Shown here: in pieces, positions 4,486 through 61,771 of the stretch
How the letters are laid out: every line of letters begins with the position of its first letter
How positions within the stretch are numbered: position 1 is the first letter of the stretch
From: a virus
IMG/VR virus record: IMGVR_UViG_3300014152_000001
Coordinates: 1-64,000 of that record
DNA length: 64,000 nucleotides
Direction: 5' to 3' (one strand)
Notes under the pieces: model-generated
Databases searched by the model: none
Seen by the model: only the letters and a program-made list of their open reading frames with translations
What the model was told of the DNA's origin: nothing
Program-made: the position numbers and the translations under genes

Positions 4486-5830
4486 ATTTAATGGAGTCGA
4501 GATTCATCACCTTTATTTGTTCTACATAAGTCTTAGCCTGCTCGATGACATCATCCACAATCTTCTCCAAGTCGCCCACCATCAGAATCTCCACTGCGGC
4601 CAATCTGGGTAGGTTGTCCACTAGAGCGCAGTTCAAAGCCCCACCCCGAATGTGAGGAAAGGAGTGAGCGTAGTGCGCCTTGAGAAAGGACGAGACCTCT
4701 ATTATCTCACAATCCTCAATCTCTTCAAAAAGACCTCTCTCATATACGGGTGTGTTGCAGAAGTCTCGAACCTTGTGATTGAACCAGAACTTCCTCAGAG
4801 TCAGGGTTATCCTCTCTTCTAAGGCTCGATAGTCGTCAATCAATCCCTTATGCAAGTCGCTGTCGTATCCCATGTCCTGTAGTGGAGCATAGTCTCCATA
4901 GGCCAGAATACCGAACCTTCTTCCCATTGCGTAACTATTTCTACAGAGGAAGCCTAGAATATCTCTAAAGACCGATACATGGGTTCCTTGGAGAGCGAGA
5001 GGATTGGCCGTCACAACGAAGGGACACGCACCTGTCACCGATAGAGTTGTGCCACCGCCAGCCACCGTTGCCCTTCCCGATTCTAAGAATCCTAGCAGGA
5101 ATCCGGCCATGTTTTCCACCGTCTGGCTCTCAATCTGGTCTATCGCAAGCGGATAGTATTGCTCATGGAACAACCCATAAGCCTTATCGTCAGTCCACTT
5201 GGCCGACCCTAGAAGGGTGTTCTTGGTGGCCTTGTCAATCAATCTGCCAGCCAACTCGAAGAAGGTGCTCTTGCCAGTGTTAGGCGGAGTAATCTGTAAT
5301 TCGTGGGGCTGATACCTCATGACATAGCCTCTCGGTAGGGTGGCTCTGTTAGCCAGAACCAGAGCAGGGTCTCTTGTGCAGTTGTATTCCATGATGCCTT
5401 TGATGAGATTGTTATACTCTTCGGTAGGTTTGTCTGCAATAGCATCGAACCACTTGCCCAAAGTAATGTCATTGAACTGATAGTCCGTCCCAAAAACATA
5501 CATCCCCAAGTCATTCCATTCTTCTAGCCTTGGGTCGCCTCTCTGAATCTTGTTCATGATGTAGCCCTGTTCCTTCAATTCAAAGATAACATCTAAATCC
5601 TTAATAGTCATCTCAGTTAGAGGTAGGGCAGACTTCTTGCTATGGATAACGCTTTTAGTATCTACGATGTAGATAGGCGGAGTTATCACTGTTGGGTAAG
5701 CCCGATAGAGTTTGGCTCCTACGGTGATGAGGATTCCATTGTCGGTCTTCTCCATCTCAGACTTCTGATAGACGGGTTCGATTTGCTCAAAAGAATTGAG
5801 CACTTTGTTCTCAGACATTGGTTTCATCAC
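4472..5830 (-). CDS. MCM-like AAA+ ATPase, probable replicative helicase (start likely 5818)
   Basis: PPNTGKST Walker A, LAIDQIE Walker B variant, VVTANP sensor, RRF arginine finger. Confidence 0.7.
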   Translation of the reverse strand: MMKPMSENKVLNSFEQIEPVYQKSEMEKTDNGILITVGAKLYRAYPTVITPPIYIVDTKSVIHSKKSALPLTEMTIKDLDVIFELKEQGYIMNKIQRGDPRLEEWNDLGMYVFGTDYQFNDITLGKWFDAIADKPTEEYNNLIKGIMEYNCTRDPALVLANRATLPRGYVMRYQPHELQITPPNTGKSTFFELAGRLIDKATKNTLLGSAKWTDDKAYGLFHEQYYPLAIDQIESQTVENMAGFLLGFLESGRATVAGGGTTLSVTGACPFVVTANPLALQGTHVSVFRDILGFLCRNSYAMGRRFGILAYGDYAPLQDMGYDSDLHKGLIDDYRALEERITLTLRKFWFNHKVRDFCNTPVYERGLFEEIEDCEIIEVSSFLKAHYAHSFPHIRGGALNCALVDNLPRLAAVEILMVGDLEKIVDDVIEQAKTYVEQIKVMNLDSIKYAIT

Positions 5831-5990
5831 TCTCTATTGGGGCTATTAAGGATTGTGTTCTTGACCTCGCCCTTATCAACTCACGCCAATTGGCAAGGGT
5901 TCTCAGTATTCGCTCATCTTCGGCTGTATCGGGAAAGCCCTGTGTAAGTTCGATTATTCTATTGGCTAAACAGGGATACAGTATCTCCAT
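5811..5990 (-). CDS. 59-aa mini-protein with MCP-like N-terminal segment (not in ORF track)
   Basis: MEILYPCLANRIIELTQ vs MCP 16-30 LFYPALAKRIVELTM; own promoter aatccttattaa on minus strand at ~6013-6024. Confidence 0.75.
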   Translation of the reverse strand: MEILYPCLANRIIELTQGFPDTAEDERILRTLANWRELIRARSRTQSLIAPIESDETNV

Positions 5991-6787: not shown

Positions 6788-7183
6788 ATGAGAACTTTGA
6801 CCAGAGAAGATAAACTAAAGTATCTCAAGACCTACAGAGAAACGCATAGGAGAGAGCGTTATCTCTACAATCGAGAATACTTCCACAAGTTGAAACTTAC
6901 GGTTCTTACCCATTATTCTGGAACCAATCCACCCCAATGTGCCAATCCTTATGGAGAGCACAAAGAACCATACACTAACATAAAGGCTCTCTCAATAGAC
7001 CATATCAACGGTGGTGGGAATAAGCATAGGAAGACCATTGGTTGGAGTCTCTACTATTGGCTTATTGCCCACAACTATCCCAAAGGCTTTCAGGTGCTTT
7101 GTATGAACTGCCAATTCATCAAGAAGTATGAAGAGGCTTACACAGAATCCTTAAATAGAATAGAGAGGAAGGGTATGATATGA
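6788..7183 (+). CDS. HNH-like endonuclease, paralog 2
   Basis: HYSGTNPPQCANP...SIDHINGGG...YYWL..NYPKGFQVLCMNCQ. Confidence 0.82.
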   Translation: MRTLTREDKLKYLKTYRETHRRERYLYNREYFHKLKLTVLTHYSGTNPPQCANPYGEHKEPYTNIKALSIDHINGGGNKHRKTIGWSLYYWLIAHNYPKGFQVLCMNCQFIKKYEEAYTESLNRIERKGMI

Positions 7184-32888: not shown

Positions 32889-33362
32889 TTGAGCCAGAAT
32901 ACACCGATTCCCTACTGTGACACTCAAGACCTAGTAAAGCAGTTGAATCTACAACAGTCGGCCACCGACCCCAATAAGTATGTCATCTATGCGATTCCGA
33001 CTTCAGTGGATGTAATCAATACCTTCGTGAAGCAGGCTAACGAGCAGACTACCATCCTCTTTGGAGACCTCACCAAGACCAATTCATATGGACTTGCCAA
33101 ACAATACGCGACTTGGAGAGCCGTTCTCAACATGATTGAAACGATGACTATCAGTTGGGTAATCTCTGGTATGCCTGTGACAGTAGGCGACATCAGCATC
33201 CAACGTCTCTCAGCCATGCAAGCGGCAACTGTCGAACTTAAGGAAAACACACTCAGAGAACTAGCGAGACTCTACATCATGCTATCCGATTTCAGTTACC
33301 CCAACAACTACCAGAGTCCAAGCCCGTTTGTGGATACGGGAGGTCAGATGTTCTTCAGTTAG
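32889..33362 (+). CDS. Head-tail adaptor protein
   Basis: YCD.QD. N-terminus, helical core, VGDISI strand. Confidence 0.65.
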   Translation: MSQNTPIPYCDTQDLVKQLNLQQSATDPNKYVIYAIPTSVDVINTFVKQANEQTTILFGDLTKTNSYGLAKQYATWRAVLNMIETMTISWVISGMPVTVGDISIQRLSAMQAATVELKENTLRELARLYIMLSDFSYPNNYQSPSPFVDTGGQMFFS

Positions 33363-34957
33363 TGATAAAAATGGCTACAACAATAGATAATGGTTTCTTC
33401 GCTACAGTCAGTAATCAACAAAACGTCTTTTTTGTCAATGGACTTTATTGGGTTTTCTACTATGAGACAGGAAAACCACCCAATGAAGTAGGATACAAAA
33501 CAAGTTCAGATGGTGCATCATGGTCAGCCTATACAATGGCTATTGCCAATGTCGGTGGTGGCCAAGAAGAGGTAGATTTTGTCGTTGTTGGCACTACAAT
33601 TTATTACGCAACTTGCTTAGGCAATTACAGATATGGAAATCTTGATGTGGCTGGAACTATAACTTGGGCTATCCCAGAAACAAGTATAGGATTTCCTGCC
33701 TATGACTACCCAAGTATTGCGGTAGATAGTGGCGGCTTCATTTACATTGCCACACTTGGGACGAATGTGGTCAATGTTTACACAAACAGAACTGGAAGTT
33801 GGACACTAGATTTGACTGTTCCATTTGTTTCAGTGCCGGGAGCAAGATATAAGATTGTAGCCCTCACAGGTGGAAAGATGCTCCTTGTATATGGTGATTT
33901 CAACCCAAGCACTTGGTATACTCAAAGATTTGATGGAGCAAATTGGAGTGCTGGCTCAAACACTGTTTCTAATGAATACGATATGATATACAGTGAATTT
34001 ACGTCAAGCGGTGATGTAGCCTATGGTTCGGCTGTAAGAGAGAGTGGTGGCTCAATTGTAGGTATAGATTTTGTCAAGTATGATTACAATACCGATACTT
34101 GGAGTGCGACTGTGATTGATACCGGACAAACTTATCCATCTACAATTCTTATCAATTCTTCTAACACATTGCTAATAACCTATGCCACTACCTCTGGGCC
34201 TATCTCTTATACATTTTCTAACAATTATGGTGCATCATGGACACCCATTGCAACCATTGCTGTGTCACCAAGTCCATTTGACCTAACGGCTATCCTTACC
34301 AATGCTAATGAATTTTCTGTGGTCTTTGATGACCAAATTTCAATTTACATAACTCCCGACCCACCCATTCTCATAACAACAGCAATAATCATAACAGACT
34401 ATGCCTATGCCGAAGACAGCATCTCAATTAATAGAGGCACATTACCAGTCTGCGGAATGACCTCTGGAGCCTACCCTCTCTCGCCTATGGAGAAAGATTA
34501 CATAAATCTCGGCTACCAGCAGATAATAGACATAAGCGGGCTTCCTATCACCTATAAGACTATGAACATAATTGGTGAAGACGCATACGAGCATCCTATC
34601 ATCACATACACCAATAAAACCATCACAGCCTTCATCACCATCCTCAGAAACGATGAGTATGAGTATGTTGAACCGGGCTTCCTACCCAACCACTACGCCA
34701 GTATGTGGGTCTATTGCGTGACTCCACAAGTAGGAGACCATGTAGTATGGCAAGGCATTGAATGGGAAGTAAGGAACTCCATACCAAAGGTCATCGGTAA
34801 CGATACCGTTTACTATCAAACCGTCCTCAGAAGGGTGCTTGCTCGTGTGCCCCTCACAGGTGAAGTGGGAGATGGAACCGACTTAGGCGATACAACAGGG
34901 TCAGGCGGAACACTTCAGTCTGGCGGTGTCCAATACCCGCCAGAAGGAGACCCATAG
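33362..34957 (+). CDS. BNR/beta-propeller domain fused to a head-closure-like C-terminal domain
   Basis: SSDGASWS and SNNYGASWT Asp-boxes; C-terminal P.VGD.V.WQG.EWEV...LRR. Confidence 0.6.
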   Translation: MIKMATTIDNGFFATVSNQQNVFFVNGLYWVFYYETGKPPNEVGYKTSSDGASWSAYTMAIANVGGGQEEVDFVVVGTTIYYATCLGNYRYGNLDVAGTITWAIPETSIGFPAYDYPSIAVDSGGFIYIATLGTNVVNVYTNRTGSWTLDLTVPFVSVPGARYKIVALTGGKMLLVYGDFNPSTWYTQRFDGANWSAGSNTVSNEYDMIYSEFTSSGDVAYGSAVRESGGSIVGIDFVKYDYNTDTWSATVIDTGQTYPSTILINSSNTLLITYATTSGPISYTFSNNYGASWTPIATIAVSPSPFDLTAILTNANEFSVVFDDQISIYITPDPPILITTAIIITDYAYAEDSISINRGTLPVCGMTSGAYPLSPMEKDYINLGYQQIIDISGLPITYKTMNIIGEDAYEHPIITYTNKTITAFITILRNDEYEYVEPGFLPNHYASMWVYCVTPQVGDHVVWQGIEWEVRNSIPKVIGNDTVYYQTVLRRVLARVPLTGEVGDGTDLGDTTGSGGTLQSGGVQYPPEGDP

Positions 34958-35004: not shown

Positions 35005-35415
35005 ATGCCATATAAGAATCCAGAAGATAAGAAGGCTTGGTTTCAACGAAACAAAACCAGAATGGAAGAGAAGTCTCGTATTTGGAAAAGGACTCACAAA
35101 TCGTCAATCAACAAAAGCAATAATAAGAGTCGAAAGAAGTTACGTCTTAAAGTATTGATTCATTATTCTGGAACAGACCCGCCCCAATGCGTTAATCCTT
35201 TCAATTTGCATCTTCCTAACGACCCATTTCTCACAGACCTCAGAGTTCTCTCTATTGACCATATTAATGGTGGTGGACGAAAGGACAGAAGAGAAGGCAA
35301 AAGCGGTTCCTTGTTCTACTATTGGCTTCAGAGAAACAACTTCCCAAAGGGCTTTCAAGTGCTCTGTATGAATTGCCAGTATGTGAAGAGAGAACTTAAT
35401 AAGGAGCACAACTAA
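35005..35415 (+). CDS. HNH-like endonuclease, paralog 5
   Basis: SIDHINGGG...YYWLQRNNFPKGFQVLCMNCQ. Confidence 0.82.
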   Translation: MPYKNPEDKKAWFQRNKTRMEEKSRIWKRTHKSSINKSNNKSRKKLRLKVLIHYSGTDPPQCVNPFNLHLPNDPFLTDLRVLSIDHINGGGRKDRREGKSGSLFYYWLQRNNFPKGFQVLCMNCQYVKRELNKEHN

Positions 35416-35427
35416 AGACAATATGAT

Positions 35428-35889
35428 ATGGTGCTGATTTCCCAACCGCCTTCAGGGATAGACCCCATCCTCTTCCTAGAGAACTTGCTAGAAGGTTTCG
35501 TCAAAGATGAGAAAGGAAACGATGTTCCCTTAGGAACCGTCTTTCCAAAGTCCATAAACAAACTACCGAGAGTGATAATCAACCAAAAGACAGAAGAGAT
35601 GAAATTCATCAGCATCCCTGCTATCAGACGCAGATGGACTACGCCCTTCACCCTAGAATGTTGGGCCTTGAGCGTGGCCCAAAGATACGCCATAAAGCAA
35701 AGCCTGATGGCTAGACTGGATACTCTTACTGGCAACCCCGGAGTGCAACTTGCAGACAACTACATCTATATGTGGTTCAAGATTCACGAGCCGAAAGACC
35801 AACCAAGCAGATTTGGGCAACCCATATTCACGATAGGTTTCGAGATTACACTGGTTTACGATACCTTAACAGGAAGTGTGCCTCCATGA
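35428..35889 (+). CDS. Tail terminator-like protein
   Basis: LPRVII, F.LECWA motifs; neck gene context. Confidence 0.55.
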   Translation: MVLISQPPSGIDPILFLENLLEGFVKDEKGNDVPLGTVFPKSINKLPRVIINQKTEEMKFISIPAIRRRWTTPFTLECWALSVAQRYAIKQSLMARLDTLTGNPGVQLADNYIYMWFKIHEPKDQPSRFGQPIFTIGFEITLVYDTLTGSVPP

Positions 35890-35942
35890 TAACAATTAGA
35901 ATCATGGTAAACCTTATATAGTCAAGTAACCATTACTTCCAT

Positions 35943-36332
35943 GTGTCAGCACAAAAGAGATACTACCAAAATCACAAAACCGCAATGCTACAGAAGAGTA
36001 AAGACTACTATTGGAGCCACAAACCAAAAATACAAAGGGAACAAAAAGAGTATCGGGAGCAAGTTCGTATACAAGTTTTTACTCATTATGGCGGCAATCC
36101 ACCCAAATGCGCTTGTTGTGGGGAGAGCAGAATCGAGTTTCTCACTATAGACCACATCAACAACGATGGTGCAAATCAACGGAGACGTATATGGGGCCAG
36201 AAAGTATCTGGTTTTGGATTCTATGCGTGGTTAGTTAGAATGAACTTTCCTGAAGGCTATCAAGTTTTATGTTTCAACTGCAACTGTGGCAGAGCACATA
36301 CTTTAAATAAGGTATGCCCTCATAAACAGTAG
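35943..36332 (+). CDS. HNH-like endonuclease, paralog 6
   Basis: CACCGE..IEFLTIDHINNDG...YQVLCFNCN..CPH. Confidence 0.82.
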   Translation: MSAQKRYYQNHKTAMLQKSKDYYWSHKPKIQREQKEYREQVRIQVFTHYGGNPPKCACCGESRIEFLTIDHINNDGANQRRRIWGQKVSGFGFYAWLVRMNFPEGYQVLCFNCNCGRAHTLNKVCPHKQ

Positions 36333-36333
36333 A

Positions 36334-36399
36334 ATGGTCACGCGAGAACAGGTTCCTATCGTCAATACAGGAGCATTATTCTATCCCGGAGTAGGTTGA
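36334..36399 (+). CDS. 21-aa micropeptide copying the MCP N-terminus (not in ORF track)
   Basis: MVTREQVPIVNTGALFYPGVG vs MCP MAMTREQFPIVNTGALFYPAL; tttaaata at 36302-36309. Confidence 0.8.
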   Translation: MVTREQVPIVNTGALFYPGVG

Positions 36400-36866
36400 G
36401 ATTTACGCTTTCGTAAGGCTTCTTTCTTGAATTGACAATTCATACATAACACTTGGTATCCTTCTGGGTATCCTCTAACAAAGAGCCACCAATAGATGTT
36501 AATACCACCCCAATTCTTGGTCTTAGCCACTAATCTTCGCTCCTTTGCTCCATCATCATTGATATGGTCTATCGTAAGACAATCTACATCTGTAAACGGT
36601 TCTTTGTGCATTCCAAAAGGATTGGCACATTGAGACGGGTTAGTGCCAGAGTAATGAATCAACGTCTTAACTTTCATCTGATATTTGGCCTTCTTCCGAT
36701 TTGCGTTATACTTCTTTCTATGTTTTCTATAATATCCTCGTTCTCTATTATTTTTTGCAGACTGTTTTTTGTCGCACTCTTTACAGACCCGACTGTTGAT
36801 TCGCTTATGACATGGATACCAATTTTCATCGGCTAACAATATTCCACAGACACGGCAATTGGTCAT
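36381..36866 (-). CDS. HNH-like endonuclease, paralog 7
   Basis: N-terminal CRVC..CKEC; TIDHINDDG...YQVLCMNCQ. Confidence 0.82.
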   Translation of the reverse strand: MTNCRVCGILLADENWYPCHKRINSRVCKECDKKQSAKNNRERGYYRKHRKKYNANRKKAKYQMKVKTLIHYSGTNPSQCANPFGMHKEPFTDVDCLTIDHINDDGAKERRLVAKTKNWGGINIYWWLFVRGYPEGYQVLCMNCQFKKEALRKRKSQPTPG

Positions 36867-36901
36867 ATATCAAACATATAGCCTCTGCCCTATTTAAGTG
36901 T

Positions 36902-37210
36902 TTATTGGAGAAGTTGGAGGTCGGAAACATCCAAAACGGCTGTCGCAAATTTCTTGAAATAGGGAGACATAACAATATCGCCCATCAAACCAAAGCGTTC
37001 TCCAAGTTCTCCTATTAAGACTAAGACATCTTCTTCGCTCACTATCTCATCTCCGCAATAGATAGCCAATGGTTCTTGGGTCTCTTTGCAAAATACAAAC
37101 TGATAATCATTTACCCTAGCGATGTGCTTAGTGTGTTTGCAGTCTTCGTGCCCCCCTTCAAATAGTAAAACATAATGGCCATCACTGGCTCTCGCTCCGG
37201 TGAGTTGCAT
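36902..37210 (-). CDS. Hypothetical protein with weak MCP-like segments
   Basis: QLTGAR, DGHYVL and D.......IVMSP segments; divergent promoter shared with 37274. Confidence 0.5.
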   Translation of the reverse strand: MQLTGARASDGHYVLLFEGGHEDCKHTKHIARVNDYQFVFCKETQEPLAIYCGDEIVSEEDVLVLIGELGERFGLMGDIVMSPYFKKFATAVLDVSDLQLLQ

Positions 37211-37273
37211 GGGTATATACTGTATCCTACCCTTAATAAACATTTAAGTAGGTCGCGGAGAGAGGCTGTGGCT

Positions 37274-37636
37274 ATGGTATACAATGAAGAAATCAATCAC
37301 GAATGGGGCACTGAGGTCTATCCGTTAGTCCTCAAGCCAACGATGAAAGACCTTACGACAAGCAAAGGTAAGGTTTGGATAAACACTGAGAAAGAACGAG
37401 TAGAGGAATGGCAAGGAAAGCCGTGGGTCGTTGAAAAGAGCGACATCGCAGACCGTCTTGCCCAGAAGACAGGCATCAAGTCAAAGGGCACTCACTTCAA
37501 GATGAACATAGGCCAGAAGAAGGTGGGCCTGAGTGAGTTACTGGTCATCCGAGCCAGAGAAGACAGCCTAAACGACTTCACCAAGAAAGTCGAACTGATG
37601 GCCATCTCTCTCAAGAGTGGCAGAAGCCGAAAGTAA
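37274..37636 (+). CDS. Diverged truncated homolog of the MCP N-terminal third
   Basis: Colinear blocks LVLKPTMKDL....G and KVGL(x9)EDSL vs MCP LALKPLLQDF....G and KVGM(x9)EDQI. Confidence 0.65.
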   Translation: MVYNEEINHEWGTEVYPLVLKPTMKDLTTSKGKVWINTEKERVEEWQGKPWVVEKSDIADRLAQKTGIKSKGTHFKMNIGQKKVGLSELLVIRAREDSLNDFTKKVELMAISLKSGRSRK

Positions 37637-38428: not shown

Positions 38429-38857
38429 ATGGAATACAAAACTTCTGAAGAGAAGAGAGCCTACCAAGCAGACTACGCCAAAACACATAAGGAAGAGAAA
38501 CAGGCTTACGATAGGAAGTATTGGAAAATCCGTTATGCTAAAAATAGCAAGCAATACTTGGAAAACAGAGCGAAAGCGACAAGAGAACGGAAACTACTTG
38601 TCCTAAGTCATTACAGTAGTAATCCGCCCAAGTGTGCTTGTCCACCTTGCGGAGAGACCATTATCGAATTTCTCTCAATAGACCATATTATCCCTATTGG
38701 TAATAAAGCGAGAGACAATCAACTAGGCACGCGACACGGAAGCAATCTCTACGGCTGGCTCATTAGACACAACTTTCCAGAGGGCTTCCAAGTGCTCTGT
38801 ATGAATTGCAACTTCGCCAAAGGACACTACGATAAATGTCCTCACGAGAGACTGTAG
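38429..38857 (+). CDS. HNH-like endonuclease, paralog 8
   Basis: SIDHIIP...YGWL..HNFPEGFQVLCMNCN..CPH. Confidence 0.82.
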   Translation: MEYKTSEEKRAYQADYAKTHKEEKQAYDRKYWKIRYAKNSKQYLENRAKATRERKLLVLSHYSSNPPKCACPPCGETIIEFLSIDHIIPIGNKARDNQLGTRHGSNLYGWLIRHNFPEGFQVLCMNCNFAKGHYDKCPHERL

Positions 38858-60373: not shown

Positions 60374-61324
60374 CTACAATGACCTTAGACCTGTTAATTG
60401 CACGACACTCTCCGGGTATGTGATAACCGGGGCATAGCGAGCAGTGATAACAATGTCTATCGAATCGAAAGTAGGTTGAGGCCAGACATCCACACTGATG
60501 GGTCTCTTCGTTGCGAAGTAACCCAACGGTGCATATGAGGCTGAATAGTTGCTACCAGCCGCGGCAAGGACGTATGCGCGTCCATCGAAGCCGCTGTTTG
60601 GTAACAGTGGAGCCTGTGGGATGTTCGGGGTGACTATCTGCTTCAGTCCATACAACTGAGGTGCTGAAACCACTGTTCCAGTTCCCTGAGCGTATACGGG
60701 CTGTCCGTAGAAGAGTAGGGCGGCAAACTGAGGTATCCTTGACAGGTCTTGATGAGCCATTGGGTTCATCGCAATCGTGTCAGGTTCCAAAGCAAGGTTC
60801 TGTATCACTTGCTTCGCCTGAGTTATGTCGTTAATCCCTATTGTTCCACCATACGCAGTTGTCGTCCCATCCATGAACACTGAAGCCCCTGTAACGGGCT
60901 GTGCGATGCCGTGACCAGCCGGGGCATTGAGTGCTTTCTCAACGTCTTGGTCGATGGTCATAACGACCCGTCTCGCGGCTCGTTTCAGTTGGTCTTCTAC
61001 AATGTTCACTATTTGGTCTTCAATCAACTCTCTAGTGACTCGGACTCTCATACCCACCTTGTAAGGTGTAACGGTAATCGAGTCGTAAGGTGTGAAGTCA
61101 GCCATAATCTCGGCTCCCTCTGCCGTCTTTCCTATGACGGCTGTAGCACGAGCACCCTTCTGCTTCGGTATCGAAGCAGTCGCTCCAACCTTGATGAAGA
61201 AGTCCTGAAGTAGAGGCTTCAATGCCAAGTTAGGCATTGTGAGTTCTACTATCCTCTTCGCCAGTGCTGGATAGAATAGAGCACCTGTGTTAACTATTGG
61301 GAACTGTTCACGAGTCATAGCCAT
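60374..61324 (-). CDS. Major capsid protein (HK97-fold)
   Basis: AEGAEI, K.G....VTRELIED, I..NDI..A...I, IAMNP, LYGL..IVTP.IP; follows protease/scaffold/cement genes. Confidence 0.9.
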   Translation of the reverse strand: MAMTREQFPIVNTGALFYPALAKRIVELTMPNLALKPLLQDFFIKVGATASIPKQKGARATAVIGKTAEGAEIMADFTPYDSITVTPYKVGMRVRVTRELIEDQIVNIVEDQLKRAARRVVMTIDQDVEKALNAPAGHGIAQPVTGASVFMDGTTTAYGGTIGINDITQAKQVIQNLALEPDTIAMNPMAHQDLSRIPQFAALLFYGQPVYAQGTGTVVSAPQLYGLKQIVTPNIPQAPLLPNSGFDGRAYVLAAAGSNYSASYAPLGYFATKRPISVDVWPQPTFDSIDIVITARYAPVITYPESVVQLTGLRSL

Positions 61325-61339
61325 TCTCTTTCACCTGTT

Positions 61340-61771
61340 TTAGAACAGAAGTGCTACGATAGGCAAAGGCGTGGCAACATATGTGCCGCCCTGCAATGCG
61401 ATAAGTCTAGTTGGCCCTGCTATGGGTGCAACATAACCATCGGTGGTTGCAGAAACGTCAAGATACTGACCAGCCGTGACAGTAGCATCGCAAAGCACAG
61501 TTACCTCACCACGACAAATGACATCAATTGCCGCGTTGAGTTGACCAGAGGTTTGGGCAATTCCAAGTAGGAATCCGCCTGTTACCGTTGCGGCCACAAC
61601 TTCACAAGTGAAGTCTGCCGTAGTAGCCAACGTAACCAATGCTCCAATGTATATTGCTGTCCCGTTTACATTTGCTATCGCATTGAAAGAGAGAAGGAAT
61701 GAATCATTGTGGAAGGGTGCGCCTTCAAGAGTTCCGGGGAGCGAACTGCCGTGTGGAATTGGGATAGCCAT
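61340..61771 (-). CDS. Capsid cement/decoration protein (DUF2190-like)
   Basis: GA.V.L, LGIA, V..RG.V.V.....V.AG..L. Confidence 0.7.
   Translation of the reverse strand: MAIPIPHGSSLPGTLEGAPFHNDSFLLSFNAIANVNGTAIYIGALVTLATTADFTCEVVAATVTGGFLLGIAQTSGQLNAAIDVICRGEVTVLCDATVTAGQYLDVSATTDGYVAPIAGPTRLIALQGGTYVATPLPIVALLF

Follow-up and report, generated by a model that had tools for sequence, protein, structure and literature searches.

Between two convergent HNH-type genes of the virus analysed here lies a reading frame of 21 codons whose product repeats the beginning of the virus's own major capsid protein (MCP). The question raised by this locus is whether the small open reading frame (small ORF) is a gene kept for its peptide or a piece of a capsid gene brought in with a homing nuclease, the two alternatives offered by a preliminary description. 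The stretch of DNA analysed, from now on called the window, covers the first 64 kb of a virus record that consists of one contig of 105,748 bp and has terminal repeats. The genes concerned are:

35428-35889, plus strand: tail-terminator-like gene, 153 aa, final gene of the neck module
35943-36332, plus strand: HNH6, free-standing HNH-type nuclease gene, 129 aa, GTG start
36334-36399, plus strand: small ORF, 21 codons, start 1 nt past the HNH6 stop, copying about MCP residues 4-19
36381-36866, minus strand: HNH7, free-standing, 161 aa, paralogue of HNH6
36902-37210, minus strand: conserved gene in convergent orientation, 102 aa when counted from the ATG at 37210
60374-61324, minus strand: MCP gene, 316 aa, HK97 type according to Pfam, source of the copied N-terminus

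A reading frame resembling the start of the capsid gene

When the product of the small ORF is aligned with the MCP, its residues 3-18 correspond to MCP residues 4-19 and 15 of the 16 are identical, the sole mismatch being a V for an F. The near-perfect copy described earlier, with other codons at 10 of the 15 identical residues, was thereby confirmed, and at the DNA level the two starts share 36 of 48 nt (75%). A tblastn search with the 193 long ORFs against the whole 105.7-kb genome recovered the pair at an E-value of 1.2e-4 (19 residues, 79% identity), a likeness that exceeds chance.

The 316-aa ORF from which the segment derives matches the Pfam families Phage_capsid_4 (E 1.8e-10) and Phage_capsid (E 2.8e-9), and the gene directly upstream of it (61340-61771, 143 aa) shows a weak match to the scaffolding family phrog_673. 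Its N-terminus is nearly invariant across 25 relatives from IMG/VR. The structure model of the MCP is poor (pLDDT 31.6) and a search for a solved relative by sequence returned none, so the copied segment is assigned from the Pfam alignment and general knowledge to the N-arm, which we take it to be in HK97-fold proteins lacking a delta domain. The Pfam capsid domain match extends over MCP residues 18-254, and the part copied by the small ORFs (MCP residues 1 to ~31 at most) lies ahead of this match and at its very beginning. With its 19-39 codons in different viruses the small ORF stands against a full HK97 fold with E-loop, P domain and A domain of at least ~280 residues. Judged by its sequence, the small ORF is a derivative of the MCP gene and not an MCP.

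A search of a phage GenBank collection gave no DNA match, and a protein database search with the longest allele, of 39 aa, returned only that allele itself, which is annotated as a gene on seven contigs by JGI (a prediction). Elsewhere in the window, ORF 37262-37636 was considered as the remainder of a split MCP paralogue and rejected, the collinearity with the MCP being unsupported (profile-profile probability 0.45%, E 0.13). ORF 5811-5990, considered as a second MCP mimic, likely reflects chance, with a within-genome E-value of 0.63 and no match in the related genomes G001, G002 and G004.

The small reading frame in related viruses

Upstream of the locus, the predicted structure of the 153-aa protein (AlphaFold2, pLDDT 68.5) gave Foldseek matches which include T5 p142, lambda gpU, T4 gp15 and the P74-26 neck (E 3e-4 to 2e-3), and its homologues in the relatives are 55-93% identical. 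With a tail-terminator fold predicted for this protein, the small ORF would be the final reading frame of the neck module. In the same region a 531-aa protein (window 33362-34957) carries ~150 C-terminal residues that weakly match the head-closure family phrog_161 (E 0.007) and that form a separate gene of 151 aa in G002 (see also L116, 1889-2344); the N-terminal part of this protein varies widely among the relatives.

Two of the 25 MCP relatives are complete genomes (G001 and G002), and further loci were retrieved via the 153-aa gene and via the convergent downstream gene (L121/L124, L119/L128, L131, L136 and L130). A small ORF is found directly behind the tail-terminator gene in six other lineages: L121/L124, L119/L128, G001, L136, L131 and G002/L130. 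No HNH gene lies beside it in G001, G002, L119/L128, L131 or L136, and in the two complete genomes HNH5, HNH6 and HNH7 are all absent from the syntenic place while the MCP-like small ORF is present. Between 19 and 39 codons long, the aligned copies all keep the first residues and the block GALFYP, the length, middle and tail being variable, and in L136 and G002 the match to the MCP extends to residue ~31.

In five lineages the start codon of the small ORF overlaps the upstream stop (ATGA or GTGA), and in L131 the two are separated by 1 nt, with the ATG beginning 2 nt beyond the stop. At its other end, in L119 and G001, the small ORF also overlaps the convergent gene stop to stop, so that it occupies the entire gap between its neighbours. 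To judge by these signals, the small ORF of the relatives is translationally coupled to the tail-terminator gene. Its frame relative to the upstream gene differs between the start types, which favours separate initiation over a frameshift fusion; a fusion to the tail terminator was rejected on that ground and because no slippery site is conserved and in G002 a stop lies three codons upstream. One relative, L129, has no small ORF, which is thus dispensable at least there.

When the small ORF of the window is compared with that of L121, 13 synonymous and 3 non-synonymous differences are found in 17 codons (pS 0.97, pN 0.08, binomial P 6.5e-6); other pairs behave alike, each test being based on 16-18 codons. 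Neither frameshifts nor internal stops occur in any of the seven alleles, and the small ORF displays what is looked for in a translated small protein, namely a conserved start and stop, no disabling mutations and an excess of synonymous change. The MCP starts of the relatives differ among themselves at synonymous sites as much as the ORF of the window differs from them, so that the "recoding" reported earlier corresponds to ordinary divergence under purifying selection and calls for no special process.

The pattern of changes also bears on whether the locus is kept as a nucleic-acid signal, i.e. a regulator binding site common to the 5' end of the MCP gene or an antisense RNA against HNH7 expressed from a promoter-like box at 36302. 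A transcript starting at 36334 would indeed run antisense into HNH7, but the alleles differ at third codon positions with the amino acids, not the bases, being kept, and the small ORF is retained in relatives without HNH7. Moreover, no Rfam family was matched at E ≤ 1 across 35300-37400, and a search for an unusual RNA fold gave an ordinary fold energy (z -0.72). Such a signal is considered very improbable.

The small ORFs share states that are absent from the MCPs examined: they carry V or I where F is invariant in 11 MCPs, and the codon pair GTC AAT where three MCP starts (window, G001 and G002) have GTT AAC. This points to one orthologous lineage of small ORFs instead of repeated fresh copies of the MCP gene. 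At the same time, the small ORF of G001 contains a 20-nt run identical to its own MCP DNA and that of G002 has the same S-F variant as its own MCP, and gene conversion from the MCP gene may in these two genomes have added to the apparent conservation.

The same two observations could be taken for an old duplicate of the MCP 5' end that is without function and has been kept MCP-like by repeated conversion from the selected MCP gene, a neutral relic to which the loss in L129 and the variable length and tail of the peptide would also fit. Such a relic is, however, difficult to reconcile with the V or I at the invariant F, the GTC AAT codons and a start shorter by two residues, states seen in none of the MCPs examined, and with a DNA identity of only 75% between the window copy and the MCP gene of the same virus. 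Coupled start codons are furthermore kept in all lineages, all seven alleles are free of frameshifts, and in the window the sequence preceding the small ORF includes a correctly spaced promoter (see below). We regard this explanation as quite unlikely. The selected micropeptide, one of the two alternatives proposed at the outset, instead gains support from conservation at one syntenic position in six other lineages, with the start kept and synonymous changes in excess.

The HNH6 cassette and its promoter boxes

Around HNH6 and HNH7 the following additional features were identified:

35886-35921, plus strand: stump left of the original small ORF, 11 codons before a stop; ATG and tail-terminator TGA overlap
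35895-36342, plus strand: putative HNH6 homing cassette, ~448 nt, right edge approximate
35913-35920, plus strand: TATA-like box, 30 nt before the HNH6 GTG
36302-36309, plus strand: TATA-like box in the final codons of HNH6, at -32 from the small-ORF ATG (24 nt between box and ATG)
36891-36898, minus strand: TATA-like box directly adjacent to the convergent gene's stop, at -32 from the HNH7 ATG

Both genes flanking the small ORF had been described as HNH-type, which agrees with the match of HNH6 to the HNH endonucleases of phrog_2255 (E 3.4e-5) and with the membership of both in a family of 12 paralogues in this genome. One paralogue, at 38429, matches several HNH/EndoVII PHROGs and, weakly, Pfam HNH; Pfam gave no match for HNH6 or HNH7 themselves. 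With moderate confidence, HNH6 is predicted to encode a His-Me finger (HNH) nuclease.

The first three codons of the stump are ancestral and everything thereafter is foreign cassette sequence, the 9-nt start being identical in L121, L119 and G001. Compared with the closest backbone, L121, the identity is 89.5% up to position 35895 and 70-77% beyond, a drop to the right of the insertion which would fit co-conversion of flanking DNA. In L126, 130 mismatches occur in 467 nt up to 35885 (the flanking tail-terminator gene being 72% identical in DNA) vs no mismatch in the 456 nt from 35886 to the end of the L126 contig at 36350. HNH6 lies within this identical span, as do the 17 nt with which the rebuilt small ORF begins; these are thus the same in a second background, up to the point where the contig ends. 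L125-L127 are three metagenome contigs from three peat samples which share the same left junction nucleotide and all break within or just past HNH6. The site is accordingly filled in the window and in L125-L127 and empty in L121, L119/L128, G001, G002, L131 and L136.

An identical cassette beside a flanking gene with no more than 72% identity implies that the HNH6 cassette has moved recently, and the pattern as a whole marks a site-specific element with recent mobility, as read from these alignments. The parts of the cassette are a promoter box for HNH6, the nuclease gene itself, another promoter box and, for the small ORF, a start of three re-spelled codons. It differs from a group I intron or an intein, since no Rfam family is matched and HNH6, with a promoter and a start codon of its own, is out of frame with the ORF it interrupts. 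A search for the exact right junction in viral contigs returned nothing, and next to the MCP start of the relatives no close homologue of HNH6 or HNH7 was found, some of them having HNH genes 1.4-1.7 kb upstream of the MCP gene and none adjacent. The two ends of the cassette (35897-35912 and 36329-36341) form an imperfect direct repeat consisting of TAGAAT followed, after a few bases, by GGT, which could be a remnant of a stop-plus-start arrangement in the donor or a product of chance.

That the small ORF is a recent piece of another virus's MCP gene, brought in by HNH6 or HNH7, was the second alternative of the preliminary description. In its favour, 17 nt at the start of the small ORF are carried along by the HNH6 cassette, and the DNA distance of the ORF to all MCP starts (33-36 of 48 nt identical) resembles that between distant MCPs. 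Synteny nevertheless contradicts a recent capture: a small ORF stands at the exact site in G001, L119/L128, L131, L136 and G002, all without an HNH gene there, and an ancestral start is visible upstream of the cassette. The ORF, moreover, shows the states of its own lineage and not those of the MCPs examined, and the near-exact DNA match to another MCP start that would mark a recent remnant was sought in 25 relatives and not found. A capture of this kind is considered extremely improbable; the small ORF predates the two nuclease genes beside it.

A box ending 24 nt before the ATG and embedded in the end of HNH6 had been pointed out before and is located at 36302-36309. Of all 8-nt boxes of this type in the genome (72 on both strands), 40 lie upstream of genes and 31 of these start 30-34 nt before the start codon. 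Boxes at -30 to -34 precede the ATG of about a quarter of the long ORFs, with no space for a leader, and the chance of a box at this spacing for one given ATG is ~0.002. The spacing suggests archaeal-type promoters and leaderless mRNAs, and the virus looks archaeal by this feature; among 185,579 genomes in GTDB no relative of the MCP was found. The HNH gene at 6788-7183 likewise has a box in its last codons (window 7149-7183); the ATG of the gene that follows (7180) is 31 nt downstream of it, which is the same layout as that of HNH6 and the small ORF.

At the other end, the HNH7 insert separates the small ORF from the convergent gene and spans ~36389 to 36901. The overlap of the 3' end of the small ORF with the HNH7 stop, noted previously, is correct, HNH7 covering its last 19 nt, and the small ORF owes its final three codons and its stop to the HNH7 insertion. 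HNH7 is missing from the site in G001, G002 and L119, whereas in L121 (3591-4118) a different HNH-type gene of 175 aa, on the plus strand and overlapping the end of the convergent gene by 43 nt, occupies the slot. The 3' side of the small ORF thus appears as a repeated landing place.

Outside the window, other HNH genes of the same genome adjoin diverged duplicates of the ends of neighbouring genes. The HNH gene at 105051-105554 (minus strand) overlaps the end of the gene 103959-105065, and a diverged copy of the last ~31 residues of the latter (61% identity) lies just beyond the HNH gene at 105600-105698; this duplicate recurs at genome positions 2-73 because of the terminal repeat. The HNH gene at 94299-94850 (plus strand) is situated between the end of the gene 93881-94387 and a diverged copy of it at 94789-94926 (35% identity, E 1.8e-4). 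In both cases the HNH stop is succeeded by an ATG at a distance of 0-1 nt (1 nt for 94299-94850). Elsewhere, the last 27 residues of the gene 87408-87695 are repeated at 87967-88047 (78% protein identity, 63/81 nt), with a 99-aa ORF without HNH similarity between the gene end and its repeat. The duplicates beside HNH genes are counted in favour of the account of HNH6 given below.

Proposed history and possible role of the peptide

Taken together, we consider it probable that the small ORF is a real small gene which originated from the capsid N-arm and which was interrupted, and at the same time rescued, by the mobile HNH6 cassette. An ancestor of the group would have duplicated approximately the first 32 codons of the capsid gene, i.e. 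the N-terminal arm, behind the tail-terminator gene, where the copy would have been translated by coupling, its start overlapping or abutting the upstream stop, and the peptide would have been retained while synonymous changes accumulated in its DNA. Within the clade to which the window belongs, the gene would have been shortened to 19-21 codons. The HNH6 cassette would have entered after codon 3 as a "cut in and repair" unit, re-supplying the three displaced codons in another spelling together with a promoter hidden in the last codons of the nuclease gene, and HNH7 would have entered after codon 18, replacing the variable tail. With promoter and start carried on the cassette the small gene would still be made, from its own leaderless transcript.

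The re-spelling relative to the MCP gene and to the other alleles would be explained by an allele from a diverged donor carried on the cassette. HNH6 would cut the uninterrupted allele, and the re-spelling probably makes the rebuilt site uncuttable by HNH6. A target or immunity site had been suggested for the locus as part of the capture now set aside; this part comes close to the data: the 5' end of the small ORF is itself the insertion site of HNH6, and the re-spelled start travels with the cassette. We infer that the peptide is produced.

The capsid N-arm is the region that contacts the scaffold in 80alpha, P22 and phi29. Our best guess is that the peptide would act as a low-copy surrogate of the capsid N-arm in head or neck assembly. 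Coupling to a neck protein present in six copies points to low amounts, and for this reason bulk competition with the MCP is considered less plausible than a low-copy function, either at the portal vertex or together with the scaffold. Any role of the peptide in assembly, whether structural or regulatory and at the portal vertex or with the scaffold, is nevertheless a tentative and doubtful proposal.

The codons for the T-R pair of the MCP are ACA AGA in most relatives, as in the uncut small gene, while they are ACT CGT in the window and its two nearest MCP relatives, a pattern from which it follows that HNH6 might also recognise the capsid genes of rivals. A more specific formulation, in which the micropeptide fills empty N-arm sockets at the portal vertex or binds the scaffold, or in which HNH6 attacks the capsid genes of competitors with its own being re-spelled and immune, seems unlikely.

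Free-standing nuclease genes that move with flanking DNA ("intronless homing") are described for T4-type phages, among them mobE, segB and their relatives (PMC2790892, PMC2330249 and PMC2988022), and such genes are reported to be located at boundaries of sequence exchange (PMC10448857). The case of HNH6 is similar in having no intron or intein, in being present or absent at a fixed site, in the little flanking DNA that may move along and in marking an exchange boundary. It differs from that description in the setting, a virus that looks archaeal with boxes 30-34 nt before its starts, in the insertion within a coding sequence and not between genes, and in a cassette that would equip the interrupted gene with a new start and promoter, the cleavage by HNH6 being putative.

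A second parallel is offered by mitochondrial genes of Tremella fuciformis, in which the insertion of mobile elements is accompanied by N-terminal duplications (cited in PMC8393795). There, as proposed for HNH6, the element enters a coding region, co-converted donor DNA rebuilds the end and a short diverged duplicate is left behind. Those elements, however, are introns or LAGLIDADG/GIY-YIG genes in mitochondria, compared with an HNH gene in a tailed virus here, and they differ from an insertion that would rescue a gene of ~20 codons by a promoter embedded in the nuclease gene.

With regard to the peptide, the SaPI1 protein CpmB competes with the 80alpha scaffolding protein by mimicry (PMC5644958), and the capsid N-arm of 80alpha, P22 and phi29 contacts the scaffold and neighbouring subunits (PMC5644958 and PMC11922011). 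Like the product of the small ORF, CpmB is a short protein copying a contact surface of a partner in head assembly; unlike it, CpmB mimics the scaffold and is encoded by a parasite of the phage, whereas the small ORF is the virus's copy of its own capsid N-arm, with a putative role in assembly.

Literature searches returned no description of a conserved micro-gene derived from the capsid N-arm, and we know of no described counterpart to a copy of this arm of 19-39 codons at the end of a neck operon. Homing nucleases are usually thought to be harmless by lying in introns, in inteins or between genes. A cassette that inserts within a coding sequence and brings the means of repairing it, namely a promoter and a re-spelled start, would be a clean natural example of another way of being harmless, and what is new in this case is the probably archaeal virus setting, the built-in promoter and start, and the target, a micro-gene of the capsid N-arm. 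If the peptide is made, it would offer an easy means of studying what the capsid N-arm does during assembly, and the small ORFs would represent a new class of virus micro-genes missed by gene callers.
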